The notes below the pieces were generated by a model. It ran no database searches. It was not told the DNA's origin and saw nothing but the letters and a program-made list of their open reading frames with translations. A DNA stretch of 63,997 nucleotides, filler included, from Streblomastix strix (Eukaryota), in the NCBI GenBank assembly GCA_008636045.1. It is 4 parts of 4 records of this genome, joined end to end, with 100 filler letters (N's around TTAATTAATTAA, not from the genome) between each part and the next. Parts side by side here need not be neighbours in the genome. Positions count along the whole stretch, not along the records: positions 48,943 to 63,997 come from SNRW01001042.1; 3 more parts are not named here. One strand, written 5' to 3'. Numbering within the stretch: position 1 is the stretch's first letter; every line of letters starts with the position of its first letter. The position numbers were made by a program, and so were the translations under genes. This document shows, piece by piece, positions 9,579-63,997 of the stretch.

Positions 9579-9674
9579 AATAATAATATTAAACTCTATT
9601 TTTATTAAATTTTGATTAACAATAAATATAAACTAATAAAAAACAGAATTTGAGTGAGGTGATAAAAAACATGA

Positions 9675-16217: not shown

Positions 16218-16317
16218 NNNNNNNNNNNNNNNNNNNNNNNNNNNNNNNNNNNNNNNNNNNNTTAATTAATTAANNNNNNNNNNNNNNNNNNNNNNNNNNN
16301 NNNNNNNNNNNNNNNNN
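16218..16317. other. Artificial contig linker N44-TTAATTAATTAA-N44
   Basis: 100-nt spacer; the genes on both sides are truncated at it. Confidence 0.97.
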
Positions 16318-19337: not shown

Positions 19338-19606
19338 ATAATAAATTAATCAATATGAGTGAAACATTTGTTGTTAATATATTTATTTATACATTTAAAT
19401 TATTTAACGATTAATATGAAATATAGCACGGTAATTATGACAATTTAGACAGTAAATTTATGTGAATTGACATGTGATTGATGAATTTTGATAATAAAAT
19501 GTTAATATTTATTCAAAGAATAAATAATAATTAAGATAAAATTAAATTAAAAATAAAATTATTAATTTTACATTCTAATATATACAACTGAGGAATCATT
19601 TTGAAG

Positions 19607-27500: not shown

Positions 27501-29242
27501 CGCAGTCTCAATTAAGTCTTTGCAAGTTAAAATTCTAAATTTCAATATGGTAGTAAATAAGCTGATAATATTGGAGACGCTTTGTTTGATAGTACTAAAT
27601 GCAAACGTGTTTAGGGAAAGGACTCATTCATTGATACAATTATGAATGAAGAAACATCATGTTTACTTCCTTCAGATATTGTATACATATTTATTATTAT
27701 TATTATTATTAATATAATTATTATAATTACAATTAATTTATATAATAGGACTTTCCAGAAAGTTCAATATCAAAAGCTTAAACAGGTGCAGAGAGATGTT
27801 TAGATTAGAACCGCATGCCTGGAATTACTTATCCTTTTAACGGCCTTGAAAGTCTTCTTGACCGTTTTTAGCAGAGCATTGAAGATTTAATGACTCGCAA
27901 TCCTGAGATTGTGGATAATATTCCCTTCAACGACACTGATTTCTCATTTATCATTGAAAGTGCTCGCAATGATATTCTTTATGGTCTGAATTAGATTGGA
28001 GATTACCTTATGGATAATTTGGATAAATTCTCAAGCTAATACTCTACTATACTACTAGTTCTGTTCATAGCACTTAGTGTTATTATCTTAATATTATCTT
28101 TTATATTTTTCATTCCTCTCCCTCAATAACTTAGAGAAGTATCTTCCTAGACACAGTGGATAAATATCATTACATAGACAGTTTAAAAAGGTAAAAGCAT
28201 TGATTAGGTTGTATTTGATGAAGAACTTGCTACAACAGTAAATCGTATGGATGCTGCTCATAAGTAACTCTATGAAACAATGACAATAGTAGGAAAAGCA
28301 ATCACAGATGAACGTGATAAATGCATTAAGCGTAGAAAAGAAAAAGAGCACAATGATAGTGAAAAAGATGATGTAATAATTGCAAGTAGTTCAATACTCC
28401 AATTAATGCTCGATGTTCTTGTCTGGCGTATGAGTACTCATTGTTCAGATGAAGAGATGTTGATGAATAAACTTGGTCTTCCTTCTGTTTCTGCTGATCA
28501 GCATAAGTCAGATCATGTATAAATAATGCGTAAACTGATGAAATTCCACGAAGAGGTATTAAAGTGCTTCAAATAGTTTGAGGATGAAATAAACTTAATT
28601 AAAGTTGAATAGGAAATAAAAAAGAAAGCAATATAGGAAAGCGGAGGTGAGAAAGTTAATTTATCAAAAACAATAGTCGAACTTCCAACATCAGAAGATT
28701 GCCTTACATTCTTCTCTACACTTCAAAATGTGCATTTAAAAACTATAGATTGTGAGTTTGCTCTGTTTATGGGAGAGAAAGTTGGTTAGAGTCTTCTTGA
28801 CCTCCAGATTAACCTTGATGCTTTTGAAGAGATGCCTTCAGTCAGACAATTCATGGATTCAAGTTAAGATGTAAGCATGACTGAAAAAATGTATTATGAT
28901 GAGACTGTTGAAAGGATTAAATAAAGTATTCACGAGATATCAAATGGAATACTCACATCTGTTATAAATAAAAGTAATGATGGATAAGATATTCAATAAT
29001 AAAATTAATAGAATAATGGAAATCTATCATAGATTAATAATATTTAAGCCCTTCAGAATATATCTGGGATGAATATCGACTAATAGAACTAAAATCAAAT
29101 GAATATTATCGATCCAGTTAACATATCCATGTAACAATATATACAATCTTAATAAGGAAGCCTTGGAATTATGGGAAATTAGATGGGTTTCTTCAACCCA
29201 AGTAGTTTGGGAAACCCAATTCTTGCATCATCTGGAAATTGA
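24573..29242 (+). CDS. Mirror copy of the TmcB-like/hemerythrin gene (no start codon)
   Basis: Reverse complement of 19607-24276. Intron 27681-27748; TGA at 29240-29242. Confidence 0.7.
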
Positions 29243-29511
29243 CTTCAAAATGATTCCTCAGTTGTATATATTAGAATGTAAAATTAATAATTTTATTTTT
29301 AATTTAATTTTATCTTAATTATTATTTATTCTTTGAATAAATATTAACATTTTATTATCAAAATTCATCAATCACATGTCAATTCACATAAATTTACTGT
29401 CTAAATTGTCATAATTACCGTGCTATATTTCATATTAATCGTTAAATAATTTAAATGTATAAATAAATATATTAACAACAAATGTTTCACTCATATTGAT
29501 TAATTTATTAT

Positions 29512-32500
29512 TCAGAAGTTCCATTATGGAAAGACTCTTTTGTAAAGTGACATGCAGACTGTTTCAGCCTGATCCAAACGACCACTGAATATTGCCTGAA
29601 TATTTTTTAATAGACAAATTAATAAAGAAATGAAATAAATGATTCATCAGAACCTTGAAATATCCATGTGTACCGAGTGGCTCTTTAATACGTCCGAGTT
29701 TCCCCTTCTTTGTCCACAGATCAACAGGTTTGAACCAGTTAATGTCGTCTTTGTGATAATTAAATAACAACAATGAAAAATGATTAATAATGAGCATATA
29801 ATAATTTTAAATAATAAAGTAAAATGATAAATTTTTTTTCAAAACCTGGAGAGAAGAACATATATCGGATGATAGCAGAAGTCCCCTTATGTATTTTTAC
29901 AGGGTATCCTAGTTGATAATAAGAAGAAATTTAATGAGATAAGTAATAAATAAAATATCAATCAAACCAGTGAGAATAATACGTTTGATTATTAATCTAT
30001 CGGGATCAATGGAATATGTTGATCCATTAGCTACAAGAAGAGGAAAAGATGGAAGTGATAATGATAAAGTTGTAGGAATCTATTGAGTTAGAGTTAATTA
30101 ATGAGGATTTGAAGATAACTACGGTTATGAAGGAATAAGAGATTAAGTAAATGGTAAACGAAGTTATCCAAATTAAGATTGAGAAAATGAAGACATAAAA
30201 GATGTCTATTTCTGAATGGCAAATGGATTTTAGTCTTTTCCTAATTTTCTTTCTTCTAGTATTTCTTATTATCGTTAATCGCCTTAAAGATTGAATGGTG
30301 TGTTTTATTCTTCATTTCTAAACATAAGGACGGGTACTTTACCAAATGTAATTGGAGCATATGTGCTTGCAATAACGAGAGTATTTAAACCAAAATTAAC
30401 TTCCTAAATAATAATTTCAATAAATAAAACATAAAAAATATAAAAACAATGAAATATTTACAAATGTAAAGATTAATATCAAATATATACCTTCATATAT
30501 TTTCCTTTTGAACTTGTTGTTTTAATAACTGAGGTTGATAGAGTATTTTCCGTAGAAGATGATGAAGATGATTAATTTTATTAAGTCTATATTGTTGTTG
30601 TTGATGTCTACGAACGTGTTGATATAGTTGAGAAAATTGGGCGACATTTTAAACGCCGAAAACCGACCTATATAAGAAGCTGAGACTGAAAATGTAATAT
30701 TAAGGATTGAAATTAAAAATAAAATTAGTAATATTTTAAAAAATCATAAATTTAAAATTCAAATCAACCTTAGATTATAAAGGAGGAATTGGATGTAATA
30801 AAGAAATTGAATTTGTATATGAAGAATTAATATTTTTATTTTCTTATTCAATCATTGAATTTATTACTCCTTTCTTTTTCTATTCTTCAATTAGTTCATT
30901 ATTGTGTGTGTATATGGATGGATTAAGTGTGAGTGCGAAGTGAAGAACGGAGACCTTATGTTCATGTCGTAAAAGACCAAATATGACAAGTGGATGAGGT
31001 GAATATAATGAAGATTGAGAATATTAGGATAATGAAGAGGAAATGGGGATTTGAGATAATGAATTATTAGAATTGAATAAAGGAGATGGAAATGTTTGTG
31101 TCTGTAATAATGGTTAAGGAATGAGCTCTTATTATTATATTTGCTATTATTATTATTAAGGAAAGAAGTGATTCATTATTTATTGTGCTGTAGATACTGG
31201 CATGTCTTTCAAAGTAATTGTTACTATGTCTCCGGGTTAGAAAGGAAATGGACGTTTATGTGGATGTAATTAATCATGAAGTGGAAAAGATTATTTATTC
31301 TCTTTATCTAATTAATGATCAATTTATTTTTCCATTGAATAACTCTACTTATCTCCTTCTTACTCTTTATCATTTTATTTATCTTCAATATTCTCTGGAA
31401 TCTTCTGTCTTTCATTTTCTCTAACCCAAATATCACTCTCCTTCAATGATGCTCTGGATGTCTATCCAGAACTGGCAAAGGCAAATATACGACTGTACTC
31501 TGGTGGTAAATTCTCCTATAATGTGAAAGAATGAATATAAACATAGAGAATATAAACATAGAGAATATAAACATAGAGAATATAAACATAGAGAATATAA
31601 ACATAGAGAATATAAACATAGAGAATATAAACATAGAGAATATAAACATAGAGAATATAAACATAGAGAATATANNNNNNNNNNNNNNNNNNNNNNNNNN
31701 NNNNNNNNNNNNNNNNNNNNNNNNNNNNNNNNNNNNNNNNNNNNNNNNNNNNNNNNNNNNNNNNNNNNNNNNNNATATAAACATAGAGAATATAAACATA
31801 GAGAATATAAACATAGAGAATATAAACATAGAGAATATAAACATAGAGAATATAAACATAGAGAATATAAACATAGAGAATATAAACATAGAGAATATAA
31901 ATATAGAGAATATAATAAAGTAATATGAATATCTTTGCATTCAAACCTTTGTATCCCACGGTGAAGATTAGAATGATCGCATACCCCTATATCTGAAAAT
32001 TAATGAATAAATAAAAATGATTTATATATATATATATATCTTAAAATCAAACTTTGAAAATCTCTCTCTCGCTGATGTATCTAAAGGAACATCAACTTCA
32101 TCTGGGAATTCTTTCTCCCCTCGAACAAATCCAATCTAAGGATGAAAATGAAATATTAACATATATTAATATATATTAATATATTACAATTATATAAATT
32201 GAATTTAACATTTAAACTATTTTTAAACCATCTTTTTTCTGTCTTCTTTGTTTCTCTTTTCCTCCTCCAATAAAACATCAACAACAGATTATGTCTCTTC
32301 AATAACTTTATTCTTAGCATCTAATGATACAACAAAATTAAAATAAGTATAAATACAATGAGAAAATTTCTCTTAATTATATATAATGAAAAAAATATAT
32401 TAACCTTCTTCTTATTAAAATTATAGGGCATTTAATGCTCCAGAAATGTCTGGAAGTTCTCCAAAAGTATCATCAATATCATTTTAATCACTTTTACCAT

Positions 32501-32531
32501 CAATTTTATCAGATTCTACATCCATCAACAT
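29512..32531 (-). CDS. TSR1: Mirror copy of TSR1
   Basis: Reverse complement of 16318-19337. Confidence 0.9.
31533..31914 (-). repeat. Mirror copy of the 15-bp minisatellite
   Basis: (AAACATAGAGAATAT)n with a 100-N gap. Confidence 0.97.
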
Positions 32532-32631
32532 NNNNNNNNNNNNNNNNNNNNNNNNNNNNNNNNNNNNNNNNNNNNTTAATTAATTAANNNNNNNNNNNNN
32601 NNNNNNNNNNNNNNNNNNNNNNNNNNNNNNN
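32532..32631. other. Artificial contig linker
   Basis: N44-TTAATTAATTAA-N44. Confidence 0.97.
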
Positions 32632-33160
32632 ATCTAACATATTCTTTAGCGTTTCAGGGAAATTTCTCCCACAAGTAGTAACTTAGATATTATGCTAGCA
32701 TGGATTTTCATAACAAGTTGTTGCTCTAGCATCTTTAGGAAATAACAGACACACACTTGTAACATGAGATAATGAAATGTTTTACGAAGTTCTTATTCCT
32801 GTTGTAGTAGCACTTGTTGGGAACTACCAAACTTAAATTCTCTATGAAGGTACAACAAATGGTCTATTAGCATAGAATTCACGAACTCTTTAATGTGAAC
32901 GTAATAGTAATGGTGCGCTAACATTTGATGGATTAGACACAAATAATTAAAATGTATCAATAGGATTAAGTGGAGCACCTATTTATTAAAGTGATACATA
33001 TTGTTATTATAACGTTGATTTAATGGGTAAAAGACCCCCACCACCAATTCTATGCACTATACATGATACATTCTGGCTATTTGGACTTGCTAACGGAGAT
33101 TCATGTGTTTATGATGTTAATAACACATTTGATGAAGTGATAAGTTAGATTGAAGGATGA
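32632..33160 (+). pseudogene. C-terminal part of a putative major capsid protein
   Basis: LQCERNSNGALTFDGLDTNNQNVSIGLSGAPIY...PPPPILCTIHDTFWLF...DEVISQIEG* is a beta-rich C-terminus next to a packaging ATPase. The upstream part is disrupted. Confidence 0.45.
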
Positions 33161-33299
33161 AAAATCAATATTAGTGTTTTGTTTTTATTTAACCAAAATG
33201 TATAAATAAATATATGAGACACTTAAGCTGCTAGAACTATAATTACTAAATGATTATTAACAAAAAAACTAAAGAAATTTAAAAATTTGATATAAAACT

Positions 33300-33793
33300 A
33301 AAATAAATATATATAAAATTTAAATTTAATACTAGATCAAATACGAAGTGTGATACAGTTAGTTGGTTTTTAATTTTAAAGTTAAGATAGTCAATCATTG
33401 AAATATTTTATTTTTTAATTTAAAACAATCTTTTAATTTAACAGAAAACGGGTGATATTAACTTAAAATTCAATTATACAAACAGATGAAGAGGTTAGTC
33501 AGTTTCTATTACCTATAGAATTTTTCATATCAAAAAATAATTTAGGAATAATATTTATTTAATGTAGAGCAAATAACACTTTAATTGAATGATATCTTTA
33601 TATTAATGCATCATTTGTATATGAAGATTAAGATAATGCTTAGTATATAAGTGGATGTGATGAATAGTACACCAAGAAGCACTTTTTTCAATTAAATCAT
33701 GATAGAAGTGTATAATTTTGGTTTACGAATATTGATAATGAATAAGTTGATTAAAATAATGTCATTTACACTTGAAATCAATTTAACATTATG
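33300..33793 (+). pseudogene. Putative minor capsid (penton)-like remnant
   Basis: Frameshifted LYINASFVYED..YISGCDEQYTKK and QFWFTNIDNEQVD..LEINLTL*. Beta-rich, small, directly after the capsid candidate. Start approximate. Confidence 0.3.
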
Positions 33794-34173: not shown

Positions 34174-34839
34174 TCATGAGTCTAATATCTTTATTTTTAT
34201 TCCATCATTACTACATTATACCATTAAGGCTTATTTCGTTGTTAAATTTAAATATCATTCCCACACTTTATCTTTATTAAATGGTATAGAAGATTAATAA
34301 TAAAATAAGTTAAATTTCTTTCTTTTGAATCCATCGAAAAAGTAAATTGTATCGACATTAGCTTTTATATTTGCATCAAGAACTATTATGTCCTATAGAC
34401 ATAGAAATTATGTGATTCTTGGCTATCTATTCTTGAATAGCTTTTTGAATAATGTTAATTAATTTATTAGATGTTTCTCAACAACAGTATCATATGCTGC
34501 TTTTGCCTCAATGAGGTCATTAAGCACCCCATCAATCTCACCATAAGTAACAATCTTTGTTGGAATATTGATTAATGTACTCATCCTCTTATATGTTTAA
34601 TCATTATTGCTATCTGTAACATATATAAATAATGTATACCAGTTCTTAATCTAACTCAATTTGATTAATTCTTTGAATACATTGTATGACTTACCACTTC
34701 CTCTCTATCCAATAAGCAAGTTAATAGAATTATACGTAAAGTTAATTTCCTTGTGAATTGTACTTTATACCTCATGTTTATTCGTGACTTCACTCTCTAG
34801 TAATTCATTTACATATAGAGTTAGTGAATGATTTGACAT
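34174..34839 (-). pseudogene. A32/FtsK-HerA-type DNA packaging ATPase, degraded
   Basis: Walker A NLLIGQRGSGKS (34687-34710) and NRQPRITQFLCLQD (Arg finger/sensor Gln). No Walker B visible; internal TGA at 34255-34257. Confidence 0.75.
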
Positions 34840-34858
34840 TTATTTACAGTTGAAACTA

Positions 34859-36072
34859 ATGATTGACATGTAGTTAATATCTATTTTTTTGCTTAAACTA
34901 AGTGAGTGAACAAACTTAATAAAGTGGATCTTAATAGCCATGTGTTGCAAAATGATTAGAATATACTTCTCGTACTAAGTCAAGAGTTTAAGAACCAGGT
35001 TAATATGAAAGTAAAGGAATAATACTATCATATGAGACTTATCAGAAGATAATAGGACCATAATTAAAATTAAATTAAGAGTTGAAAGATAATAAAGATT
35101 GTAAAAAGGTTAAAGAATAATCATTTGCGAAAGAAAATGAGATTTTAGCGTAATCAGTATAGTAATCATATGCTCCACTAATAGATTTGATTGGTAAGAA
35201 TAAAGATATTCAATTTAAGAAAATGTGGTCAAATTAGCCATCATTTGAAAAGTGAAAGAAGAGTAGAAAAAATCTTAGATAAAAGAAATGGGTTGGATCT
35301 GGTGAAGATATTAATGGTGATAAATTTCCAGAGTTTGTTGTTCGTGATGATAGAGGATTTATTCAATCAGCTGTTGGACTTAGAATTACAGTTCCAATTA
35401 AGCGTCAAAAAGTCACCAAATATTTCACTGAAAATCCAACTAAAGAAGCACGTTAAGAGAAACATTATAAATAACGGAAACAAGAAGATAAACCAGCAGA
35501 TAGCTATAGACATTTCATTAAAAATATCTATCTCTTTTCTTGAAAGTGCGTGGCTATACTGTTGCTTCAGTTTATTCAGTCATTAGAGGTAGGATATGGA
35601 AGGTAGTTATTGCTCCATTGGTATTGCAATATTATGATAAATCATATTAAGCATAATCATTTATTGGAGGTGATGCTACATCACTAGCAATACATAAGAA
35701 ATTGAGTAAAGCAATAAAATTAGCATATAATTTATATTTCATAACTGGTGAAAGTGAATAAAGAGATAATTAGATGATGAAATTAATATAAGTAAGTTAT
35801 GCAGGATTTTGGAATAGTGAATTAGGAGAAATTCCTGATGATACAAATGATGAGAGTGAAGCAATATTGAGAATTCCTCTGAGTTAGATATTAAAACTAC
35901 AAAATAGAAAATAGATGAGAAGAGAGTAATTGAACAATAATAATATGAAAATAATATAGCAAAAATAAGAGCAAGGAAATATCCTAAATTTAATGAAGGG
36001 AAGATATTAGAAAATGCTATACTACTATCTTTTGAATTCGAAAATGATTTAGATGATTATGTAACAGAATGA
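34859..36072 (+). pseudogene. Decayed virus-associated hypothetical ORF
   Basis: Readable blocks such as WVGSGEDINGDKFPEFVVRDDRGFIQSAVG, broken by frameshifts and stops. Divergent from the ATPase. Confidence 0.4.
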
Positions 36073-48842: not shown

Positions 48843-48942
48843 NNNNNNNNNNNNNNNNNNNNNNNNNNNNNNNNNNNNNNNNNNNNTTAATTAATTAANN
48901 NNNNNNNNNNNNNNNNNNNNNNNNNNNNNNNNNNNNNNNNNN
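48843..48942. other. Artificial contig linker
   Basis: N44-TTAATTAATTAA-N44. Confidence 0.97.
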
Positions 48943-50911
48943 GTGCTGGCTCACATAGAAAACTCGGAACTTAGTATAGTTTTGTGAAATCAATCAAGCT
49001 TGATGTATGGAAGCTGGCAGAGGCGAAGCAGATGACGATTGGAAATTTAGAAAGTAATAACTATTTTGAAGCCAATCTGCCTGATGGAATCTAACGCCCA
49101 ACACACGAAGATGATTAATCGTTTGAGAATTTATAACATATTCAAAAAATATTTAATCATTATAATTACAATTTTGTTTAATTAAGCATTAGAGAGAAAT
49201 TTGTGAAAGATAAATATCAGCGAAAACTTTGGATTTCAAAAGTTTATTTTCTGTTAATATTGATTCTTATTTTTTTCAAATATAATTATTATATTTACAA
49301 ATTAAATTTATTTATCAGAACAAACCACCTCCAGACCCGCCAGAAATAACTGAACCAATCAAACCAAAGGACTCGATCGATATTCAGAAAATAAAGGAAT
49401 AAAATGAAGCACCAAAAACTATTGTTGTACTGGAAACTACAAAAGTTACTGAACATATAGAACCATTTTCTCCAAGAAAACTCAAAGGGAAACATCATAA
49501 AGAGAATATCGATAAAATTGACAAAATTGACAAAATTGATTCAAACTCAAAATAAGATTCAAATAAATAATATCAATAATAAATACAATAATAATAATAA
49601 TAATATCAGCAACCTGCATTTCTTCAGACACATGCTACAAACACGAATATCTCTTTCTTTGAGTAACCATCAGCTACTGTTCAAGCTGTGATGCTTGCTA
49701 ATACGGATCCACATATGCATTACACATCATAATAATAATAAATATAATAATAACAATAATAACAATAATAATAATATCAATCAGAGCCTCAACTCCTTCA
49801 AATGCCAACCTCCAGTCACAATCATATTCTTCCAATGTTCTACCAGTATCAGCAAATCCAGGCTCAATAACCACAAATACAGCACATTCGTCCAATATCA
49901 ATACTTCCTCCGCCAATTAAACCGCTTCAGTTCAATGCGCCACCATAAGTTATGAATTAGATAAACAATAATGCTTTAGATATAAATAATGCTTTGAATA
50001 CTAATAATTAGAATAATGCAATTAATTAGAATAATCAGTCATAAGGATAAGATCAGTAATAATAATAAGTAGTAACAAATTCTAATATTGAGAGTCAGAA
50101 GTAAAACACTCAATTAAGTCCTGAAAAAACGTAATAATCAGTTAATAATCAACAAGTATTGAATGAACGAATGCATCCACAGTAATATTCAGATACTATT
50201 TAATAACATGATCTGCTCAAATTTGAGAAAAATCAATAATCTCTTCCTTAAGTAAATTCATCTTCAAATATAACTCAATCTGAATAAAGAACAATATCTC
50301 ATGTTCCAATACAAACTCAACAAAAAGAAATAATATACAATGCATTCCAATAGTAACAGCAACATTTCATTCAGAAACAAACACTTATTTAATCTTCACA
50401 TCTAAAAGAGAGTGATTATAACCGAGTTATTGTAAGACTGAATGTTGGTGGAACTTAGTTCTGGACGTAACTTACAACTCTTGATTATGCTCCATAAACT
50501 TCTCTGTTGTATAATCTAGGCAAACATATTAAATAGAATGGAATAATTGTGCATTTAACTGATAACGATATCTAAAGTAATTAAAATGTGAGATAAGATG
50601 ATTCTTATGATGGAATTGTTGATTTTCCTGAATTTCAGCCATTCATAACACTTCCAATAAATACATCCGAGGTTAATTTTCTCCAAAATCCGTCACAGCA
50701 TAAATAATCTCGCGCACTTCTGACAAACACTCTTTTCCTTGACCGCGACCCAATCCTCTTCCGTTTCATACTCAATAATCTGAGAGATGCTCAACAGACA
50801 GTATTAGATTAAGGTCATCAATAGGCTGCTTCTACATAAGGAAGCGGAGGAGTTATAGCATGCACTCAGGCGCAGTTGCAAGTAGAAATGTAGTTTTTCG
50901 GACTTAAATGA
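48943..50911 (+). CDS. ArfGAP domain + polyQ linker + KCTD/T1-type BTB domain (5'-partial)
   Basis: (C)AGSHRKLGTQYSFVKSIKLDVW..NNYFEANLP..REKFVKDKY, then VRLNVGGTQFWTQLTTL, FLDRDPILFRFILNNLR and EMQFFGLK*. Introns 49121-49186 and 49242-49318 keep one frame. Confidence 0.85.
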
Positions 50912-51339
50912 GGGTAGATTGTATATATTTTTAATTTGTTTAATTTTTAAACTTTCATATTTATAAAATTTTGTTGAAATAAATCTTAATTGACAAAGTA
51001 AAATTTTTCATTAATTTTGCAACAAGTTTTTCTCGTCTGCTGTATTTATCTTCAAAGCATTTCTACTACCAATCAGTTATATACCAACGAACTTTTAAGT
51101 TAATTTGATTTGTTTTTTATATTTTTATTTATTAATAAATTGAAAATAAAGAAATTAAAGAATAAAAAAAAGCCGCGCAAAAAGTATATTAAAAAAGTGA
51201 AGCCATCAGTGGAGCCAGTAGTAGAGCCAATAATTGAGCCAGTGATGGAGCCATAAGTGGTACCTGTTGTGGAGCCAGCCGCAGGCGGAGGTCGGAAGAC
51301 CGACCAAGTGGAAGCTCCAAAATAAGGAAGACCTAGCCA

Positions 51340-52323
51340 CTTATTTAAAACTATAAACTCATATTTAGTTAATGTGCCATATAGTAATAAAAATTCTTCG
51401 AAGTCCAAGCCCTAAATACTATTCTCCTCATATACTTATTTTAAATCACTCTCGCCCAGATTAACGCCTAAACAATTGACGTGTGATAATATGCGAGCTG
51501 TCCTAAATAAATAACTGGGCTATTAAGCTATAAAGAATATGGTATTTTTACTATGGCGTAAATCATTAACCAAATGGGTAATGGTCTTAGATAATGAACA
51601 ACTAAACATTGTATATCAGCATTGGAACCTATATCATCAAACAGCATCATAGTATTCAGTAGCTGGGCATCTTTTAATATAGGAATTTTTAATATTTTTA
51701 TGTCTGCTGTTTATTTATCGTCTATGACTTTCAATTTCTTTTGATAGCTTACGTTCTAAATTAATGCTGGAATTTTGAACCGCAAAATTTCAAAAGATTA
51801 TGAATATTTATTTATGGTCACTATTATTGTTGATTAAAATAGTTCGGCAATTCTTACTATATATTAGTTTGATTTTTCTTCCCTTTTTGTTCGATTTGGT
51901 TCTATTATTTTCTCTTTCATTCGTTTAATAAAATCGCTATTTTAATCAAAATTTTATTCGCGCAGCTTTTAATAAATATACACTTCTTTAGTGCTATATT
52001 TTATCTCGACAAACTCTGGCAAAAAAAACCATAGCCTCGCCATATGTTATTTTCACTATTTATATTTCAGTACTATTCAAATTTAACGCCATAATTTCAT
52101 CCGCCCCAAAATTAGAGAAATAAATAATATATGGATCAATGATTTTTTTATACATAACAATCAGCTTGGACATTAGCGTTGTTTTACCTGAGCCAACAGC
52201 TCCAACGATATAGTGGTTGCCATTGACGGGGAACAACGAATTTTTAGTAAGTGGCTGCGTTTTATATTCGTTCAATAAATCTTAGTTCGCAAATTATATA
52301 TTTTGTAAATCTGAAAGAGTCAT
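51340..52323 (-). pseudogene. A32-like DNA packaging ATPase (frameshifted)
   Basis: Walker A HYIVGAVGSGKT (52180-52203), Walker B MMLFDD (51633-51650), and NDLRHSKNTIFFIAQ (Arg finger plus sensor Gln). The motifs are not all in the same frame. Confidence 0.85.
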
Positions 52324-52556
52324 TTTTATTAGAATAAAATGTTTCTAAGCTAATGCAACATTTTGAATTTGATTATGGCCTCCAAGTTCTATATATTTTA
52401 TGGCATAAATTTTGTAATATCTATTTAATCCGTTTTCATCCCTGATAATTTAACTGATACAGTTAATTTAATTAAATATTTATAAGGGTTTTTGGATATT
52501 GTATCTGTTTCCCTTAATATTACAATTTATATAATATATTTTTTTATAGAAGAAAA

Positions 52557-52727
52557 ATGAAGAACAATTAAAGATCATTCATTGGAATAAATTAACGGAG
52601 TAATAAATTGAGGCATTTCTGAACGAAGCAATAACAACTAAAGATTTTGAATTAGCGCAGCACTGGCGATATATATTATATTTGAAGATGTTGAATTCAC
52701 CCCAGACTGACAAATAACAAGTTTGAA
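52557..52727 (+). CDS. Small (56-aa) element-encoded hypothetical protein
   Basis: MKNNQKIIHWNKLTEQQIEAFLNEAITTKDFELAQHWRYILYLKML...*. Confidence 0.4.
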
Positions 52728-52816
52728 ATTATTATTTCTAATTTTTTTATCTACCTATAAAAGACAAATCAATTTGAAAAACTGGAATTCTATCTAAACT
52801 AAGACCAAGTAAAAAA

Positions 52817-53400
52817 ATGACGGACAACTAATATAACAAATCAACAGCATATATATAATTTAACGAACTCCGTTTATGGAACCTGTAATTTTATCAATTA
52901 ACCAAAGTCAAAAACAGCGATTATACATATTATAGGAAATTAAAATGGTATTGGAAAAATAACGAAAAATATATATTCGTTAATGATACAAATAATAATG
53001 AATAGAAAATAAGCATAATACAAATCATATAATCAAATCATAAAAGGAAATCAATTAATGAAGTCATCAATGAATATACCGAAGATGAATCATACGGGAT
53101 ACGAATATTTTATTTTAATATAAATGAACCAAATTTATTAATTAGCCACAAATTTCGGCTTATAATATAACACTACGGATTATGAGATATTTAAAAAATT
53201 TGAAACATTAATAGAAAATAATAATCTGAATGAAGAGGAAAAATAAACATATCAGTAATTCAAAAATCACTATACATTCATTGAGCGCGTAAATGATAAA
53301 ACTGATGAAATCATAAAATATATCCAATATCTCAATTTGCTTATGAAGTTAAATTAAGTTGGTAATAATGGACCAAGCAACTATTTTTTGCGTCATTTAT
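52817..53400 (+). pseudogene. Element-encoded hypothetical ORF, frameshifted
   Basis: MTDNQYNKSTAYIQFNELRLWNLQFYQL... is disrupted near 53180; end approximate. Confidence 0.35.
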
Positions 53401-53829
53401 AAAATCAATATATATTTATTTCTCTGTTTCATTAGCTTCGGAAATAATATTTTTTTTGATTTACAGGGGCCGATTATTTTAATCTAATTGCTTTTTTTTA
53501 TTTAACTGCATTTATTTTTAAAATATTTCATATGTTCATTAAATAATTTATTTTTATATTCTTCTTCATTGATATATTATTTTATGCTTTAAAATTTATT
53601 TTATAAATTTAGAAATTATTTATTTATCCTCAGTAATTCTTTCAAAAGTGGATGCATTTGTTCTTTATTATCTTTGATAAGTAAATTATTTATTGCGTCA
53701 ATGGCTACCTTTATCGTATCCTCATTTTCAAAATAACATTTAACAAGTTCATTAAAAAAGTTATTTTATAGGCTTAACCGAAGGGTCGAGTGAAGCGAAA
53801 GACATTTAATATAAAAATAAAATAAAATT

Positions 53830-55970
53830 TCAGAAAACCCGACCGTTAAATGTTAATTTGTTTCCATAAGGTGATATTTATAATCCTCTATCAATCTAAC
53901 CTTCTTAACCTGCTTTTACGATGGTAAAACCAAATGGGTTTGAATCAATATTTCCTATTGTTCCTATCAACCGTTAATTAGCAATATATTCAGAATTTAA
54001 ATTTGGATCACTGCAAAATTATATAATACACCATAAGTTATCTGAATGCCTACTAATTTCTATACATTCGTTAAGTTATCCATTAAGTGTTGGATTTATT
54101 TATAATAATTTTCCGAATGTTTTTATTCCATTAATTGTTTAATCACTTCCAACATCTACTAATCCATTACCATTAAATTTTAATGTTTATCCATCTGCGG
54201 ATATTTCTAATCCTCTAGTATTATCACTTACTTAAGATGATACAGCTATTACAAAACTATAAGGAATATTTGTAGAACTATTTGGTGGTGTAAATATTGA
54301 CCATTATCCTTCAATAGCACCAGTATTAGATGTTCTACTACATCCTAACTCAATTGATGCACCACCTGTATTTTCTATTGTCCTAGCTATTCTCAAACCA
54401 TCGTCATAACCAGTTGAAGTAGGGTTTATTTAGATACTATTATTTTATGTAAATGGAGCATTATTTATAGTAAGTATATTTGCTTATAAATTAGATAATA
54501 ACTCTTATGAATCTGTAAAATCAGTTGGCATTTAATCAACAGATTCCGATGTTAATATATCAGTAATACATTCAGAATGATTTAATGGTTCAATTGTTTA
54601 TGTAATCTATCCTTCACGGCAATATTGTTATAATCGGCACCATAAATCGACTGTTTTATTTACTCTCTCCCCATAGAATAATGCAATTGGATTATCAACA
54701 CGCTCATTAATGAAAATACGCGGTTTATAATTATATATGAAGCCCTCGTACCTTCATTATAGTATTAATTTGTTGATATTTTTCCAAATCCCTATCTTCA
54801 TTACAAATCAAATTCAATAAATGTATACAAAAAATCAGACCTTGCGTTAAAATGACATAATTTAATATAATTATCTGCATCGGTATTATTTGATATATTT
54901 TTTTATTCAATACCGTTAATATATTTAGTATCTCCATTCACAAGCAATATATCGCTATTTGTCCTACCTGATTTAATAAATTTAGTAGCAGTAATGTTTC
55001 CATCATAAGTCAATTATTGAGGATGAACAAGGTCATTTCTACAGTAATTATCACTCGTTCCATTAGCAGAAACAATAGCATTTATCAGAGGCACATTGAC
55101 ACAACTGGGATCAACATTAAGAGGATGAGCCTGATTTGACCTAGAGTAATAATTAAAATTTCCAATATCTCCCCCTGTGCCTGTATCTTTTTGAGGTTTG
55201 TTTGCTACATCGGTATCAGTGTTCAAAATATGCTAGTGGTCGGCTCAAGAGTATGCTGTTGAAGTTCCCGCTGTTCCTGTTGCTGAATCTCTAGATGGTA
55301 TTTATTCGCTGACTTATAGCGGATGCTAATAGTCCCCACGGCTATATTCTGTGCTAATGCCAGCAACACCCGCGCCACTATCTGCCATTGGTAGCGCATC
55401 GCTAGTGGGAGAAACTTTATAAGGAATTACTTATCCGCTATTGTACCAATTAGAGTCATACATCCATACTGTCCCACTCTCGGCACTGTATGCAAAATCA
55501 CCCGCTGCGGAATCAGGTTGTTAAATTATAACAGTGTTCAATAAATAATATCTCCTAAAATGCTGCTATCGCGCAAGCTCTTACTGCATGGTTATTATAT
55601 CATTTTTTACCCCAACAATATCAGAGTCAATAAAGCCGACAGTAGATTATAATTAATTTACTTCATTAATTAATTGGTTAATTTATCCGACGAAATCAAA
55701 TTTTAGAATCTTTAAATTCTTTATTGTAAGCAAACAATCAGCGGCTATTTTTAATGCAAAATCGGATGCTTAGCCGTCAAGGATTTAATTATTGGCAGCA
55801 TAAACTAAAGCGTTATCATTATCTATAAACAATTAATAATCTCCATTTTCAAAGCACTCCACCCGCAGAGTTGCAACCGCGTTTCGAGTACTAAATATAA
55901 TAAGCTATATCGTTAGTGATTAATTATCGGATTATTCTAATTTATTACTATGAAAGCGAATTATTTCATT
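53830..55970 (-). pseudogene. Fibre/spike-like protein with GxxGxSxxYSRxDHxHP repeats and duplicated C-terminal module
   Basis: Coiled coil, four repeats (YSRGDYQHP, YS*ADHQHI, YSRSNQAHP, YCRNDLVHP), DQTINGIKTF, and two RGL.IS..G..L.FNG modules. Has an internal stop and frameshifts; TGA at 53830-53832. Confidence 0.65.
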
Positions 55971-56044
55971 ATATTTATTTAAAAATAAAAATAATTATCA
56001 AACGAAATCAGCTGCAGGCGGAAGTTAAAGACGACATATTGGAA

Positions 56045-56251
56045 TCTTCTTTTATTTACAAGCTTATCCACAGCCCCCTCAAGATTAGCACCTGCCCCAA
56101 TTGCTCCACCAATGCCCGGATGAATCATTCCGACGGGGCCTGATACCGTTGAAAGAACTTTATAGACAGTTGGCGCTATCCATTATGCGGCATGTTTGAC
56201 ACCCCCCAAAATTTTCGATCCAAAATTTGCTATCGTACTGAAAAATCTCAT
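56045..56251 (-). CDS. Small amphipathic Gly-rich protein (candidate membrane-lytic virion protein)
   Basis: MRFFSTIANFGSKILGGVKHAAQWIAPTVYKVLSTVSGPVGMIHPGIGGAIGAGANLEGAVDKLVNKR. No stop codon follows the apparent end, so the end is approximate. Confidence 0.5.
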
Positions 56252-56334
56252 TTATTTTAAAATAAAAATAATAGATTCATTTGTTTTAATCATTATTATA
56301 ATCATTTATATTATTTATTTTTATTTATTTAAAA

Positions 56335-58100
56335 ATGTCATTTTCAGCTTCAGATTATTTAAGTCGTTTTGCGAAAATGCAACACTCGGACTATATTAGG
56401 GACTATATGGCGATGGGTGAGGTATTGAAAACTATGAGCATCCATGCATTATCTTTCACTATATCAAAATATGAATTTTTGACTAGTCGCTTACTTAATT
56501 AAATTCTTCAGGTGCTAAATATACCCGTGCTCCACTAGCGGCAAGAGGGTCAGCTACTTGCTCAATGGTTTAAACATGCTAGGTAAATTAGACTATAAAA
56601 ATACCTGCAAATACATTAGCAATATAATTAAGTAGACTACCTGTAGCGGCCGTTGTCTCAGACTTAACAGCTAAAGTTGCCGTTAATTTTTGCGCTAATA
56701 CAAATATTACTGCTATAGGCAAAAATATGGACCAAGGCGTACAAAAATATTATGGTAATACATCCGATGGAATGAATGAAAGTGAAGTTCTACGTTTTAA
56801 GCAAGGATTTTCTGCTGCTTGCGGCTCTTTTAATTAATTTGTCATATGTAAAGATTCAACGAAGTTAAGTGATACATTAATTTATGCAAGAGAATAAGCC
56901 GTCATATGTTCAAACTCATTAAATGATTTTTGTACTAATAACTCCGTCAGCGTTTCGCCACTGGAAAGCATCATATCAGGGAAACGCCACTGAGAGGTAT
57001 TTATAAACATATCACTTTTTGAAATTGATACATATTCGGGAATAACAGCAAAATATTATAGAATACCTCATGATATTGTATTTTGTGGGGTGCTTGATTT
57101 AAATTAATTGAACCCTATTTATAATTCGTTTCTTGTACTAACAAGAAACTACGCATCATTAGATTTATTACCTTGGATGTTGGACTTCCTGCAAGATTTA
57201 AAAGCTGTATGGCTAAATAAAACAGATACAACGGCAAATAGACATTTAGCATATTAAATTATACCTCTAGAAAAAACCAGATATAGTATATTTATTAAAT
57301 GAAGACTGAATTTCTTATGGTAAATTTAGCGTTCGAATTGTCAATATGAAAGGTGTAGCAAATGGAGCAACAGGCCCATAGAACACCATTAGCTAAATTT
57401 AAGATACAGTATTAACAAAATTGGAAATATAAAATGTATGTTTCAAAATCGAAAAAGGGGACGCGATTATTTAATTTATCCAAAACAAAATAATTATTAA
57501 TTTCCCCACTTAAGTATTAAGGTCATAATCTTCTAACTTTTCATTTAATAATTTTGGAATTGAGAACGGAAACCTTTAAAGTATTATGTCATTCTCAAAC
57601 AATAAAGCTATGTTTATGACTTTCGCCATGCATTAGTATCCGACGTGGTTTTTCCCTGTCCTATTTTACAACTTCGATTTGATCAATGATTAGTGGCACG
57701 TGATTCCTGCACCATATGAGGCATTAACTTAAGCGGCAAATGGTTAAATGTTTGATTGTTTCGTTGATTAGGAAGCCATTAGTGCCCCGTCTGACTAATA
57801 TTATTTTCTTATGTTCGAAAATAGAAATATAAACGACTAAAGAGATTTTTATGGGCACACTGATGGAACAACTGCAGATGCTAAATTATCAAACATATTT
57901 TATAAATCTACTTTATATTACGGGACAAAAGAGACTAAAACATTGTATCCAAATAAATTTATGCTCGTATGGAAATGAGTCACTGACGACTCATTTACGT
58001 GTGGATATAATTCTTCAAAAATAAGTGCTAGAACAAATATATAGGTAATTTTAAATGGAAGTTTAGTTCAAGGAATTTTAAATAACTTCATTTTTTATCG
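56335..58100 (+). pseudogene. Putative double-jelly-roll major capsid protein, degraded
   Basis: ~580 codons with beta-rich blocks (LDLNQLNPIYNSFLVLTRNY; IINFPTQVLRSQ; PNKFMLVWK*VTDDSFTCGYNSSK..TNIQVILNG) in a packaging-ATPase/fibre context. Contains TGA stops and frameshifts. Confidence 0.55.
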
Positions 58101-58109
58101 ATATATAAA

Positions 58110-58759
58110 CCTTTATCTATATTATTTATATCTCTCTTATTCTATATCTAAAAACGTTTGTCATTTCTGAATCCTGTTGTTGTATTTGCTAATTTAGAAT
58201 TTAATACCCAGCTATATTCTAACGTTGGAATAAGCATTGGGTGGCCATCAATGATTTGGATACTATCATATACATTAGAGCCTAAATATAAATTACTATC
58301 TAAATCTTTATTGATTCCTCTATTTATTTTTATAACTCCTAACTTATCATCAATTCCAAGCGTTGGTTATAGTGTAAAATCACCATGAACAAGGGGACGT
58401 AGTTTTAGCAAAAAATCATTTATATCTGATGTTTCACCATTAGCCAGTAAAATTTAATTACTTGCCCCATCTTATTTTATAATTTTATCCACATAAATAG
58501 GTGACAAAAATGTTTTGATTCCGCTAATGGTTTGATTGGGTTTTAGATTAATAAAACCCATAGCTCTTTTCAAAAATTAGGACAAATAAGAAAACTATTT
58601 TAATGTTTGATTATCAATGGTTGCCATTAATTGATTTTTTTGCTTTATTTATTTCATTTGTTCATCCTATTATTATTTCAATAGTTGAAATTATTATTGT
58701 TCTTAAGCTAAATTATCCTCATCAAGATTTTATAAATCGCTTAAAATCGGGGAGTCCAT
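58110..58759 (-). CDS. Second fibre-like ORF (3' end unclear)
   Basis: MDSPILSDLQ, a coiled coil, then NQTISGIKTF and DGASNQILLANG; the QTIxGIKTF motif is shared with the 53830-55970 protein. Confidence 0.5.
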
Positions 58760-58794
58760 TAATATAAAAATAAAAAAGATATCCAATGATAAAA

Positions 58795-59596
58795 TCAAAA
58801 ATCGTTTTCATTTATTTCAGTCTGTGGAGTATCACTAAGACGGATAAAATCACAATTTACTCGATATAATTTTTCTATTGAATTATATAGCACATTATAA
58901 ATTACTATAACGGATACGGTTTTTATTAGAATATCCATTACACGTATCAAATCCTTCTTTTTATATGTTTTACCCATGCATGAATGAGCTCGCATTAGTG
59001 GCTCCTCTAATACTATTTCAATATCATCCTCAGAATTTTAAGTTATTAATGCCCACAATTTTATAAGATTATCCGATGAAAATATAAAATCGTCTCCTCG
59101 TTTTCTTTAGCATTTTAAGTATGCAAGTATGCGGCTAAATAATGGCTTCCTCTAATACTATTTCAACATCATCTTCATCGTTTGGGGTAAATAGTGCACA
59201 AAATTTGATGAAGTTATCAGAAGAGAAAACAAAATCATCGCCGCGTTATCGCAAGGTAATAGTGCGCCATATCGTATCAATTACAAACTTTTAGACTTCT
59301 AAATTTGGATGCGAAAGATATATATTTCTTGGCTGTTCTTCTACAAGCTTTTACATAGCCTCTTCTGGCTAAACTTATGCAGTAGTGCGTTCCACTTCTT
59401 TATATTTATTTATCTTGTATTTTTTATGATTTCTTGCTGATTATTCATTTGTCTCTTCCGTTTATGGCAGCATAAATGACCTTTTCGTTGTTTGCTAATC
59501 TATGCGCATTGATTTTATACGGCAAATTGCTTCATCGAATATTAATAGTTTTATTTTATCTTGGTCTTATAGTTGTTTTTATTTTATTTTGGACAT
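58795..59596 (-). pseudogene. Element-encoded hypothetical ORF with diverged internal duplication
   Basis: RGDDFVFSSDNFIKFCALF and RGDDFIFSSDNLIKLWALI occur ~145 nt apart. Confidence 0.5.
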
Positions 59597-59614
59597 TTAT
59601 TTTTTGTTTTTAAC

Positions 59615-60247
59615 ATGTGCAATTAATTTCTTACTATTCATTTTACCATTTTATATTTTATAAAATATTAAAAAGGATAAGGCACATGCATTAAAAAAAT
59701 TGATTGAGAATGGAACATAAATCGAATATTTTGATAATGGATATATTATGCAAGTTAAAGATAAAATTATAGTTTATGAGGATGGGAAAAAATCAGCGCG
59801 TACATTGACTCCCGCACAATAAAATAAATTACTTTTATAAGCAAGAAGTGGGGGCATTGAGAAAAAGAAGATATAAAAACCTATTGAAGAAGAAGAAGAT
59901 GAGGTTGTGGAGTATGAAAATGAAACTGAAGGCTCATAAAGTTAAAGCGAAGTTAAAAAAAGCCATTAAAAAAAATAAGCCGAAGGCTCCGAACAGTTAA
60001 TAGTTCAAAATAGCCATAAATTAATTATACTAATCCGTAGCTCGATTTGGAAGAACTGATACGATTGAGAACAGAAAAAACATTTATAAAATAATAACAA
60101 TAAGACGCAATAAAATAGTTAGAGAAATATAAGCAAAAAATAAAAGGTTATAAATACCCTAAGAAATAGGAAGAAATTAAAGAAGAAGAACCAAAACCCG
60201 AACCATAACCTGCTCCATAAATGCGTGAGTATGAATTATATATCTGA
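59615..60247 (+). pseudogene. Element-encoded charged low-complexity ORF
   Basis: KKLIENGTQIEYFDNGYIMQVKDK...EEEEDEVVEYE...PAPQMREYELYI*; likely frameshifted, start uncertain. Confidence 0.35.
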
Positions 60248-60523
60248 GTTTAAACATTAACGTTTAACATTTTTTTTTTATTTTATTATATATAGCCAGT
60301 AATATAGTGCAGTAATGGATGTGGCATTGCTGATTCAGTGGCCCGCTGCGAGTAGTATATATGGGTGAAGTTCGAACTAATTTATAATTTTATGTTTATT
60401 GATATTAGTAAAAGAGATTGAATATTATGAACGAGGATGCAAATGCATTCCGAATTCGTAATATGAAAGATTGATTTTACTTTACCCAGCACAAATAAGA
60501 TAAAATAATACGTTGGGAAAACT

Positions 60524-63500
60524 TCACCACTATACACTTCTGCGGTTTAATCTGTGGAAACAATCATATATTTAGAAACCGATAAATCTTCTCTCATCAT
60601 CTTACTAATTTGATTATGGATTTCTCCAGTATACAAAGTAGTTTGATACATAACTTTTGGCTAAATTTGCTTAATTTTAGATATTAATTTCAATTAATCC
60701 TCCATAATCGTTGAAATTATTTCTAATAAATCCTTTTTTTTCGTTTTTTAAATAATTATGAATCAATTTCTTCATTTCCACCTTCTTCTTCGATTTGTTC
60801 TTCAGACCTTCGGGCAAGAAGAGGTTGAGGTGGGAATGATGGATATTAGTATTTTCTCCCTTGATGAATATCTCTGAGGAATTTGGAGATGTAACGCAAT
60901 CCCTCACAGATCTACTCATCTCCTTCCACTTCTATTCCACCAGCTGTACTAATTGATATGATTAGTACTCTTCCATATTCGGCATTGATTAGTTTAACTT
61001 GCTATTACTAACCACTATATAATTGAATATTGCCAAGAATTTATCTACATTACTTTCTAATCTCGTAAGATTATTATTGATCCTATTCATTGTTGATGTA
61101 TTTGAAGTGTTTATGATTAGTAAGAATAGCTAGTGAATTAATGATGTTTGAAATTTTTGATTATTTATTTACATTTAAATTTATTACAGATTTCATTTAT
61201 AAGATCAATAGAATTTGAAACAAATGCAGTAGATGAATAATACTCTTCTAATTATTATTAATGTAATTTTTAATTAATGTTTGTTTTTTACATTAGTTAA
61301 AATTGTGTTGAATATGAAACTATGAATGATGCTAGGTGAAAAATGAAGTTATCATCTTAAATTAACATGTTTCTGATTTCTGAATTATTGAAGAAAACTT
61401 CTATAGGATTTTTGAAAACAGCTTTATGTTCTTTGTATAATTCTTATAAATCAGGATATTGTGGAATATTAGTGCATTATTAACAATTAATGACTTCAGG
61501 ACATATTATTTGGATAAATAAATATATTCTTTTCTTTATAATATTTATAATCTGATTTGGAATTCAATTATACCAACTATTCGTAACTTTCTCTCTAATT
61601 AATGGAATAACTTTAATTAATTAAGATTATTATTTAAATTCACTTTCAATTTCATCTATATTCATTTCATTATTAATTTTTTAATTGTCTTATTTTATTT
61701 TACTGTTTATATTAAATAAATTATTTATACTCTTATTAATAACTTTAGCATAAATAATAATCATCCATTAGTCAGAATTTCTTCCTTTCATAATTTTTAT
61801 ATATATTCTTATTAATTATTCAGTTTCGGCAGAATATTTCTATTATTCTTTTTCTATCTCTATTTTATCTTTTATTATTTATTCAATCTTAGAAAGGAGA
61901 CCTGATCTCCGAATATCATTGAATATTGTATCTTGATCATATGGTAAAGAATGCATTTAAACTCCATGTTCTGCAACAAGCTCAATTATATTAAGAATAA
62001 TCTTTTCAGGTCCAATAGAACAATCTCCAATTCGAGATTTAATTATTAATTATTATTTAACATCATATATCTTTTTTAATTCATTAATTCCTTTATTTTT
62101 AATTTATTCAAATATTATTATTGATTTTTTTTCTTTTTCTTATTCAGTTAATAAGCTACTTCCAAATATGTTTGATACATTTCTATCCATTATTTTGATG
62201 ATTCTTTCTTCCATTTCATTTCCAATTTATATTCCTTTCATTATATTCTTATATATATTCATTAATTATTCAGTGGTTTTGGAAAAAGGAATATTCTCAT
62301 TTTCTTTTTCTTCTTATTCAATTTTATTTTTTATTATATATTCAATCTTAATTATGAGTCCAGACAATTCAAATTCATTGAAGAATTAATTATTATCATC
62401 TTTTAAAATTCCAAATTCTACAATTGATTCAATTATGTCTAAAATAATCATCTCTATTTCAATTCTACAATCATTTATGTGTTTTTGAATTAGTTTGAAT
62501 GCATCAATATTAAATATATTTCTTAATTCATTACGATCTTTCTTTTTCAATTCATTAAATATTTCTCTTATTTTCATTTCTTTCACTTCATCATTAATTG
62601 TTTTTGATTTAATAATGTAAAGAATATCTTTCATTGTTTAATCCAATCGATTAAATTAATGTTTTTGAAGTACTATTTTTTAATGGAAATAAATTTAGAA
62701 GAATTTATGAAGAAATTAATGTTAAAAAATGTTAATTAAAACAATAAATACATAAATAAGTATTATAAAATTTGAATAGATATTAATAAAATAATATTTA
62801 TTATCAAAATATACCATAATTTCTGATATGTGTTCCAAATCTAACTAAAAGTCCTAATTAATTAATTCCTTTTGGTTTTTACAATAATGGCAATTGATTT
62901 TCGTTATTTATTTATTCAATTTTTAATAATTCTTTCTCTTTCTCTTTCTTTTATAGTTATATTTATTCTAATTTTTATTCTTTCTCTTTTTATTTCTCTA
63001 ATTATTTTGTTTTATTTTTTTCTTAATTTAATTAATTTTATTATTCATTTTTATTTTGATCACAATTTAATTCATCAATAATTTAATCATTATTTATAAA
63101 TTCAAAATTATCTAAATCATTAATTTAATTATCGTCAATATTTTCTTTATCTTATTATTCAACTTCTTCATTTTATTCACTTTATTAATTATTATTTTCT
63201 TTCATTCTTTCTTTATCTTCTTAAATCTTAAGATATTTCTTAATTGTTTCTTATTCCATTATTTATTATGTTGTTGGACGCTTTGACGAATCCTGAATAA
63301 TAATGTTATTTAAATAAATAAATTTATTTTTTAAATAAAAAAAGTTATTTATATATTTTTCATACAAATTAAAGCATTGTATACAACAACTTCCTTCATC
63401 TCCTTACAAACATACTCAGGTAACTTTGATGCTTTTCCTAATTTAATTTTCTCAATCAGTTCAGTTTCTGATCCGGAATCGAATGGATGTTGACCAGTTA

Positions 63501-63997
63501 ATAACTAGAATATTATAACACCCAGTGAAAAGATATCATTTTTGAAGTCAGATCTGAATAAAAATGAAATGAAATAAAATATGAATTGATTTATTTATAA
63601 AAATAGTTATTAATTCAAATATATTTGTCAAATGGGCTTCTGGTGCCATATATGCTTTATTTATGGTTAAGTTAGACTGTTCTTTTTCAGTTATGTATTT
63701 GTCTAATCCAAAACCACCTTAAATACAAAAATAAATAATAAAAATAAATAATTTAATCATTTATTTATAAATATAAACCCAATCTAACTGATCCGTCTTC
63801 ATTCATTATTATATTGCTTGGTTTCAAATTTAGATGCATAATCCCATTTGAATGAAGATGATGAAGAGATCGTGATATTTGGCTAAATATATACCAAACA
63901 CGCTATTTAGATGCAAAAATAAGTTAAAAATTTACAACGAAAAATTCAAACTATGAATTTTGACGTCAATTTCAGCAGCTGAGTGATTTCAGAATCT
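60524..63997 (-). CDS. Pseudokinase with long helical C-terminal region (5'-partial, introns, at least one frameshift)
   Basis: QISRSLHHLHSNGIMHLNLKPSNI, VRLGGFGL, AYMAPE, DIFSLGVIIFQLLTGQHPF; C-terminal FPPQPLLARRSEEQIEEEGGNEEIDSQL with a frameshift in an A-run near 60745. Confidence 0.75.

Follow-up and report, generated by a model that had tools for sequence, protein, structure and literature searches.

Probable decayed remnant of a small double-jelly-roll DNA virus, likely integrated in the genome of Streblomastix strix

Polinton-like viruses, Polintons and Mavericks (Preplasmiviricota) combine a double-jelly-roll capsid protein with a packaging ATPase of the A32 or FtsK-HerA type in a compact, intron-free arrangement, and many copies of them can be found in protist genomes. 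In virophages, late genes have shared upstream motifs. Streblomastix strix, an anaerobic oxymonad of the termite gut, is already known to harbor such elements: the covered part of Bellas et al. (2023; PMC10120064) describes endogenous capsid viruses of this protist that use genetic code 6, with 820 capsid genes found by PSI-BLAST from a Trichomonas Maverick capsid protein and all placed in one cluster, and estimates that about a tenth of the S. strix genome is viral. Table S3 of that paper gives a virophage capsid as the best structural match of the S. strix Maverick-type capsid. The subject of the present work is a stretch of 63,997 nucleotides from the S. strix assembly GCA_008636045.1 (hereafter, the window) and, within it, a ~9 kb block of packed open reading frames (ORFs) at 51.1–60.1 kb. 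This block is very probably a dead and partial copy of a small double-stranded DNA (dsDNA) virus with a double-jelly-roll capsid, likely located in the nuclear genome and belonging to a large S. strix-specific family.

Genes for the capsid protein, an A32-like packaging ATPase, a small glycine-rich protein and fibre-like proteins are all present in the block; frameshifts, in-frame TGA codons or both disrupt the genes for the capsid, the ATPase and the long fibre, by comparison with many paralogs that are intact. With Polintons and Polinton-like viruses, the block shares the capsid–ATPase pair in a compact block without introns, the many copies in a protist genome, and the occurrence of its outside relatives on contigs of ~13 kb. 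It differs from them in that no penton, protease, protein-primed polymerase, integrase or terminal repeats were detected in it, in the length of the capsid protein (~650 amino acids (aa)), which has no sequence match to Pfam families or solved capsids, and in the ~700-aa fibre-like gene and small glycine-rich gene that adjoin the capsid gene. Like virophages (Sputnik, mavirus), the block family has a similar genome scale, an upstream motif common to its gene starts, and a capsid model whose best Foldseek matches are virophage capsids; unlike them, the block has no detected cysteine protease or penton gene and shows no sign of a giant-virus helper.

The pseudogene of the major capsid protein is located at 56335–58083 (+ strand) and was assigned to the double-jelly-roll family by comparison with paralogs and by the fold of one of them, P0004. 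Aligned to this intact 658-aa paralog, the window copy begins with the ATG at 56335 and covers residues 1–587. Two frameshifts (~56475–56508 and ~57275–57310) and two in-frame TGA codons (56991–56993 and 57976–57978) interrupt it, and the 3′ end is cut off near 58083, with the last ~71 codons gone. An earlier reading of the window, made from the sequence alone, had placed an ORF of ~580 codons here; the extent agrees with the paralog alignment, but the lesions show that it is not a single ORF. The piece at 56475–57297 (P0001) matches 92 S. strix proteins of 481–1057 aa, the best match being 74% identical. Several of these 92 relatives bear the UniRef name ‘Major capsid protein’, and they fall partly into clusters, the largest of which holds 29 near-identical proteins. 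When 1.84 billion representatives were searched exhaustively (phmmer) with the C-terminal half of the capsid protein, 56 matches were obtained, which comprise fragments at 37–81% identity and one 645-aa protein at 25%.

The fold was modelled with AlphaFold2 (AF2) for P0004, using an alignment of 28 S. strix proteins and three distant relatives. A Foldseek search of the PDB with this model gave 143 matches at E ≤ 0.001, headed by the Sputnik capsid (3j26_A, E 8e-9), and followed by mavirus (6g44_A, E 1e-7), SGIV (iridovirus), PBCV-1 and PRD1. In BFVD, capsid proteins of a virophage (E 3e-11), adintovirus and adomavirus lead. The sequence identity in the structural alignments with virophage capsids is 8–10%. 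According to this model, the fold of the capsid family is a double jelly roll.

The A32-like packaging ATPase pseudogene (51331–52323, − strand) was recognised by its motifs and by intact S. strix relatives. The copy retains the Walker A motif (GAVGSGKT), the Walker B motif (MMLFDD) and the RH...Q piece, spread over three reading frames. One frame break coincides with a run of eight T (52021–52028) and another lies near 51600–51615; in addition, the copy has no stop codon where intact relatives end. At the T run, contigs with one T fewer account for 1500 of the 1599 units of summed depth in the public run X1. The intact S. strix ATPases are ~340 aa long and uninterrupted across the break points of the window copy, whose pieces show 65–79% identity to them; a protein search found 19 S. 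strix relatives. Pox_A32 (PF04665) exceeds its curated cutoff in three of the 14 family members scanned (25.5–26.2 bits against a cutoff of 22.8) and is the only Pfam family to pass its cutoff among them. When 15 window pieces were compared with PHROGs, the sole matches were two weak P-loop matches of an ATPase piece, and a profile of the ATPase family gave no match to PDB sequences. The identity to the ATPases of the metagenome contigs L003 and L001, described below, is 33–42%. By its motifs and its Pfam match, the ATPase family is A32-like.

The longer of two fibre-like genes (fibre 1, 53833–55969, − strand) is a pseudogene of ~700 aa, identified through its S. strix relatives. At least three frameshifts disrupt it: one right after the ATG, a second near 55852 and another somewhere between 54801 and 54441. 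A TGA also stands in frame at 55245–55247. An N-terminal part is followed by a coiled coil, four repeats of the YSR.DH.HP type and two C-terminal repeat units, between which a QTINGIKTF motif is located. A total of 249 relatives were found at E ≤ 0.001; all 120 of the 120 matches listed belong to S. strix, and some of those listed carry the UniRef name ‘Tail fiber protein’. The shorter gene (fibre 2, 58088–58759, − strand) is an intact ORF of 223 aa with the upstream motif, discussed below, at its ATG. It begins with a coiled coil, which is followed by a QTISGIKTF motif, and the module QTI.GIKTF...ADG is common to fibre 2 and the fibre paralog P0169 (tblastn E 1e-5).

The assignment of these genes as fibres is a prediction drawn from the coiled coil, the repeats, the automatic name and a weak match of a different protein of L003. 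The latter, 542 aa in length, resembles receptor-binding proteins of lactococcal phages over 43 residues with E 0.02–0.03. A structure search with the fibre gave no match above noise, the fibre paralog had no tblastn match among phage records, and neither the fibre pieces nor a 701-aa protein of L003 matched PDB sequences. The profile of the fibre family showed no similarity to the 542-aa or the 701-aa protein of L003.

Between the capsid gene and fibre 1, a small, hydrophobic, glycine-rich protein of ~70 aa is encoded (56030–56251, − strand), starting at 56251; its stop codon is apparently lost. It was recognised by its match to the ORF directly after the capsid gene in L003 and L001, at 29–30% identity with 20 invariant columns, and its predicted role is that of a minor component of the virion or of a membrane. 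The sequence-only reading had proposed a ~9 kb block of packed ORFs containing an ATPase with Walker A, Walker B and the RH...Q signature, two fibre-like ORFs and a small protein. Under table 6 this block is indeed found at 51.1–60.1 kb, and every one of these genes is in it.

Read-through of TGA was considered as an explanation of the in-frame TGA codons and rejected, since two of the three sites correspond to an ordinary residue in an intact paralog: Cys in P0002 at the first capsid TGA (56991–56993, within GKRHC) and Arg in P0169 at the TGA of fibre 1 (within AYSRADH).

The window copy would produce no particles. Judging from the protein families, the capsid protein of intact relatives would assemble into trimers, the capsomers of an icosahedral shell into which the ATPase would pump the genome. 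The small hydrophobic protein of such relatives would belong to the minor components of the virion or to an internal membrane, and their fibre proteins would stand at the vertices, where they would attach to the host cell.

The genes of the block are linked by an AT-rich upstream motif, TTTTTATTT[AT]{3,16}ATG. It occurs five times on both strands of the window, and four of these copies are inside the block, where they coincide precisely with the starts of the capsid, small protein, fibre 1 and fibre 2 genes. The number expected in the block from Markov simulation is 0.06, and none of 400 simulations reached four. A close variant of the motif precedes ORF X and a weaker one precedes the ATPase gene, while a copy at 51108–51140 (motif family D1) is 82% identical to the motif upstream of the capsid gene. 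The motif is a predicted promoter, proper to the family. In L003, an intergenic repeat, CAAGACGATTACAA, and its complement were observed, e.g., at 21–47, 1314–1336, 3805–3831 and 7288–7310. This repeat may be the promoter of L003, and it differs from the AT-rich motif seen in S. strix.

The block genes use the S. strix host code, in which TAA and TAG encode Gln. Only two ORFs of ≥80 aa overlap 49–62.5 kb under the standard code versus 64 under table 6. With TGA as the sole stop codon, ORFs appear in all six frames, so that a bare ORF is meaningless, and homology was used instead. Stop-to-stop ORFs of ≥120 aa were listed for 50.9–60.7 kb, and a chosen third or so of them, together with the flanking ORFs, were scanned against Pfam. 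In the N-terminal part of the capsid gene, nine of the ten TAA/TAG codons align with Gln of intact paralogs (read by eye). The TAG at 56589–56591 (Gln) stands opposite Trp (QVNWTI) in the nine full-length paralogs printed that reach this position; it is a mere substitution in S. strix and would be a stop under the standard code. No tRNA genes were found in the window, whose sequence has a G+C content of 23–34%.

In the public S. strix assembly, the family to which the block belongs has no fewer than 92 gene models for the capsid and 249 for the fibre, some of them in clusters of near-identical sequence that may point to recent activity. Every named match in the protein searches with the capsid, ATPase and fibre pieces came from S. 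strix. Judged by tags on equal-length contigs, capsid and fibre genes are located two or fewer locus tags apart on eight S. strix contigs, ATPase and fibre genes on three, and the module recurs on many contigs of 5–33 kb. Contigs of 33,332, 20,756 and 19,763 bp are among those that carry both capsid and fibre tags. Outside S. strix, three metagenome contigs, found in a metagenome scan for the capsid family, and one protein of 645 aa were identified, all of which are distant relatives of the capsid family. Scans of IMG/VR with the family alignment, the L003 capsid protein and P0141 revealed no relative. L003 has a length of 13,454 bp and contains densely packed ORFs of 90–700 aa that are intact under the standard code. 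On L003 and L001 the genes of the capsid, small protein and ATPase stand side by side, with 25–42% identity to the window pieces; this trio is the core of the lineage. Together with the locus-tag adjacency, it indicates that the order in the window (ATPase, ORF X, fibre, small protein, capsid) is that of the family. Since the family is rich in TAA and TAG Gln codons and its relatives use the standard code, it is a clean case for studying how viruses adjust to a change of the host code.

In the paralogs P0074 and P0028, located outside the window, the capsid models are fused to or trailed by an HNH endonuclease (PF13392, E 3e-8 in P0074), which suggests that a homing endonuclease adjoins the capsid gene in some copies of the family. 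For a candidate polymerase beside the capsid gene in the paralogs P0093 and P0074, no confirmation was obtained; the only Pfam match there was an HNH endonuclease.

The window consists of pieces joined by spacers at 16218–16317, 32532–32631 and 48843–48942, each composed of 44 N, TTAATTAATTAA and 44 N. This is the usual pattern of a stop-in-all-frames linker used to join contigs. The window is therefore a string of separate contigs, and genes across a spacer are not true neighbours; the viral block lies wholly inside the last piece (48943–63997, 15,055 bp). The second contig (16318–32531) is a perfect inverted repeat with arms of 8,059 nt at 100% identity (spacer N included) and 296 nt between them, most likely a fold-back chimera of genome amplification or assembly.

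On the left, the block is flanked by a glutamine-rich host gene (49691–50911, + strand) that lies outside the element and has a BTB_2 domain near its C-terminus (Pfam, E 1.4e-8). The sequence-only reading had called it an ArfGAP-BTB gene; its end at 50911 and its BTB domain were recovered, but no ArfGAP domain was found. The right flanking ORFs (60524–63171, − strand) are presumed host genes; the suggestion of a pseudokinase was not reproduced, as neither a kinase nor any other Pfam match above the curated threshold was obtained there. Public contigs match both flanks with no differences. In a public termite-gut run, the depth, taken as the summed depth of contigs and not as copy number, is 15–35 on the left flank, 45–200 on the right flank and from hundreds to ~20,000 on the block (50.8–60.7 kb). 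This contrast is consistent with a repeat embedded in single-copy DNA. The depth is uneven within the block (50758–60701), at ~24–350 on the capsid gene and 2,500–20,000 on 52.1–53.9 and 58.4–60.7 kb, and the region of ORF Z is the most repeated (13,000–20,000 at 59.3–60.2 kb). Possible explanations are that parts of the block are of unequal age or copy number, or that its right end is a distinct repeat with many copies. No terminal inverted repeats of ≥25 nt pair the ends of the block, and no target-site duplications were recognised at it.

Several points weigh against reading the block as a dead copy of a small dsDNA virus in the nuclear genome. The P0004 model has low confidence (predicted local distance difference test (pLDDT) 53.3, predicted template modelling score (pTM) 0.59), and the fold was tested on this paralog rather than on the broken capsid copy of the window. 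No Pfam family matched the window capsid pieces, three intact paralogs or the L003 capsid ORF, no PHROG matched the window pieces or the L003 ORF, and the capsid family profile had no sequence match among solved capsid proteins. The adjacency of genes in the S. strix assembly is assumed from that of locus tags, and the depth figures are sums over contigs. The block itself sits on a short contig from an assembly that also holds the perfectly palindromic one.

Gene content must be weighed as well: in Pfam and PHROG scans of ORFs of the contig, no penton, cysteine protease, polymerase, primase-helicase or integrase was found. The penton search covered the ORFs of the block and of L003 in both databases, as did that for the cysteine protease, whose gene may be diverged or deleted. 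The lack of a Pfam match to a protein-primed polymerase or an integrase in the scanned ORFs of the contig holds for the truncated window copy. The sequence-only reading had likewise recognised no protein-primed polymerase, integrase or terminal inverted repeats. With penton, protease, polymerase, integrase and terminal repeats not found, its term ‘Polinton-like’ rests on the two hallmark genes, the capsid and the ATPase. The decaying provirus with these two genes that it proposed is borne out by the capsid fold, the Pox_A32 match and the lesions; it would have been abandoned had the capsid not folded as a jelly roll and the ATPase grouped with cellular ATPases, and the fold of the paralog and the Pox_A32 match point the other way.

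Three other explanations of the locus can be considered. It is very improbable that the block derives, as a fragment, from an endogenised giant virus (Nucleocytoviricota) instead of a small Polinton-like virus. The VIA Z-scores of the capsid model, 11.5–11.9 for mavirus and Sputnik, mean that the fold does not separate giant-virus from small-virus groups. However, Foldseek ranks virophage capsids first in both PDB and BFVD, the outside relatives are located on small, dense contigs such as L003 with no detected giant-virus core gene, the module occurs on many S. strix contigs of the 5–33 kb size noted above, and no other hallmark of nucleocytoplasmic large DNA viruses (NCLDV) was seen in the scanned ORFs of the contig. 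Equally improbable is that the block is not integrated at all, being instead a chimera of episomal or free viral DNA, or of another repeat copy, with host sequence. The palindromic contig 16318–32531 of the same assembly is an artefact of the type produced by whole-genome amplification and leaves room for a chimeric join, and none of the public contigs listed bridges either junction. Short contigs, however, inevitably end at the borders of repeats, and little can be read from the absence of a bridging contig; a chimera would need to have formed at both ends, and many other contigs of the assembly carry genes of the family. The many disabling lesions fit neutral chromosomal decay and not a replicating virus, and such heavy decay favours a chromosomal fossil.

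The least probable explanation, with hardly any chance of being correct, is that the block is a copy of the published ‘Metamonada group’ cluster of Maverick-Polintons, which also includes Trichomonas vaginalis elements. The two families are alike in host, in the use of TAA and TAG for Gln, in high copy number and in a double-jelly-roll capsid that finds its best structural match among virophage capsids, and the published set of code-6 capsid genes in S. strix, as given in the covered part of PMC10120064, is large. The window itself allows a comparison, since a fragment of the published Maverick-type capsid is present at 32632–33336 (− strand), on another contig than the block. It shares ANRPFVVPSQR, FPTSATTTGIRTSQNI and LLFPKDARATTC with the sequence in Table S3, and an ATPase-like ORF with the Walker A motif GQRGSGKS is located near it (34255–35412, − strand). 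No similarity between the block capsid family and this fragment, which has 235 residues only, was found (hhalign probability 0.1%, BLASTP E 0.54). The capsid proteins also differ in size, at ~650 aa in the block family versus ~555–562 aa in the published type. All 820 published genes are in a single cluster, MMPC_40, and none of 11 tested locus tags of the block family occurs in the covered part of the supplementary files.

The locus is a dead relic of an ordinary kind, of which the S. strix genome was already known to hold many, and the block family is apparently a second, uncatalogued capsid lineage in S. strix. It seems to have been missed by the sole published survey of S. strix viral insertions, as far as the covered part of that survey shows, although UniRef automatic names indicate that machine annotation has partly recognised the family. 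Beyond this survey, full-text literature searches turned up no publication about viruses in Streblomastix or in oxymonads. The chances appear evenly balanced that the block is the fossil of a second, undescribed double-jelly-roll lineage of S. strix that has no capsid-sequence kinship with the published Maverick-type elements, is adapted to the host code and forms a new family-level group, with its own motif, a ~700-aa fibre, a membrane-like protein and free L003-like relatives. If this is true, a second capsid family with many gene models would raise the viral share of the S. strix genome and add a virus lineage for oxymonads, for which the literature searches found no virus isolate.

The remaining ORFs of the block are less well defined. 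ORF X (53070–53805, − strand) starts with MSFASL behind its variant of the motif and changes frame soon after the start; no family or relative was found for it, and it has no similarity to the ORF upstream of the L001 capsid gene. ORF Y (58795–59642, − strand) has no Pfam or PHROG family. It contains an internal tandem duplication of ~135 nt (~58975–59243, − strand), in which the peptide RGDDF.FSSDN...EDD.EIVLEE is doubled with a shift of frame. ORF Z (59650–60059, + strand) is charged and of low complexity, and there is no ATG at the expected place. At the left end of the block (51108–51340, + strand), the D1 copy of the motif is followed by a short basic ORF (51141–51340) with (V/I)EP repeats, encoded by a 12-nt repeat and likewise without an ATG at the expected place; we infer that it is part of the element.

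A public gene model, P0259 (534 aa; 55248–59356, − strand), matches the last piece of the window in segments at 96–100% identity. It strings together parts of ORF Y, both fibre genes and the small protein gene with antisense capsid sequence, and is a chimeric gene model annotated as one spliced ‘hypothetical protein’. Spliced over this locus, antisense capsid included, it shows how decayed viral blocks distort the gene catalogues of protists.

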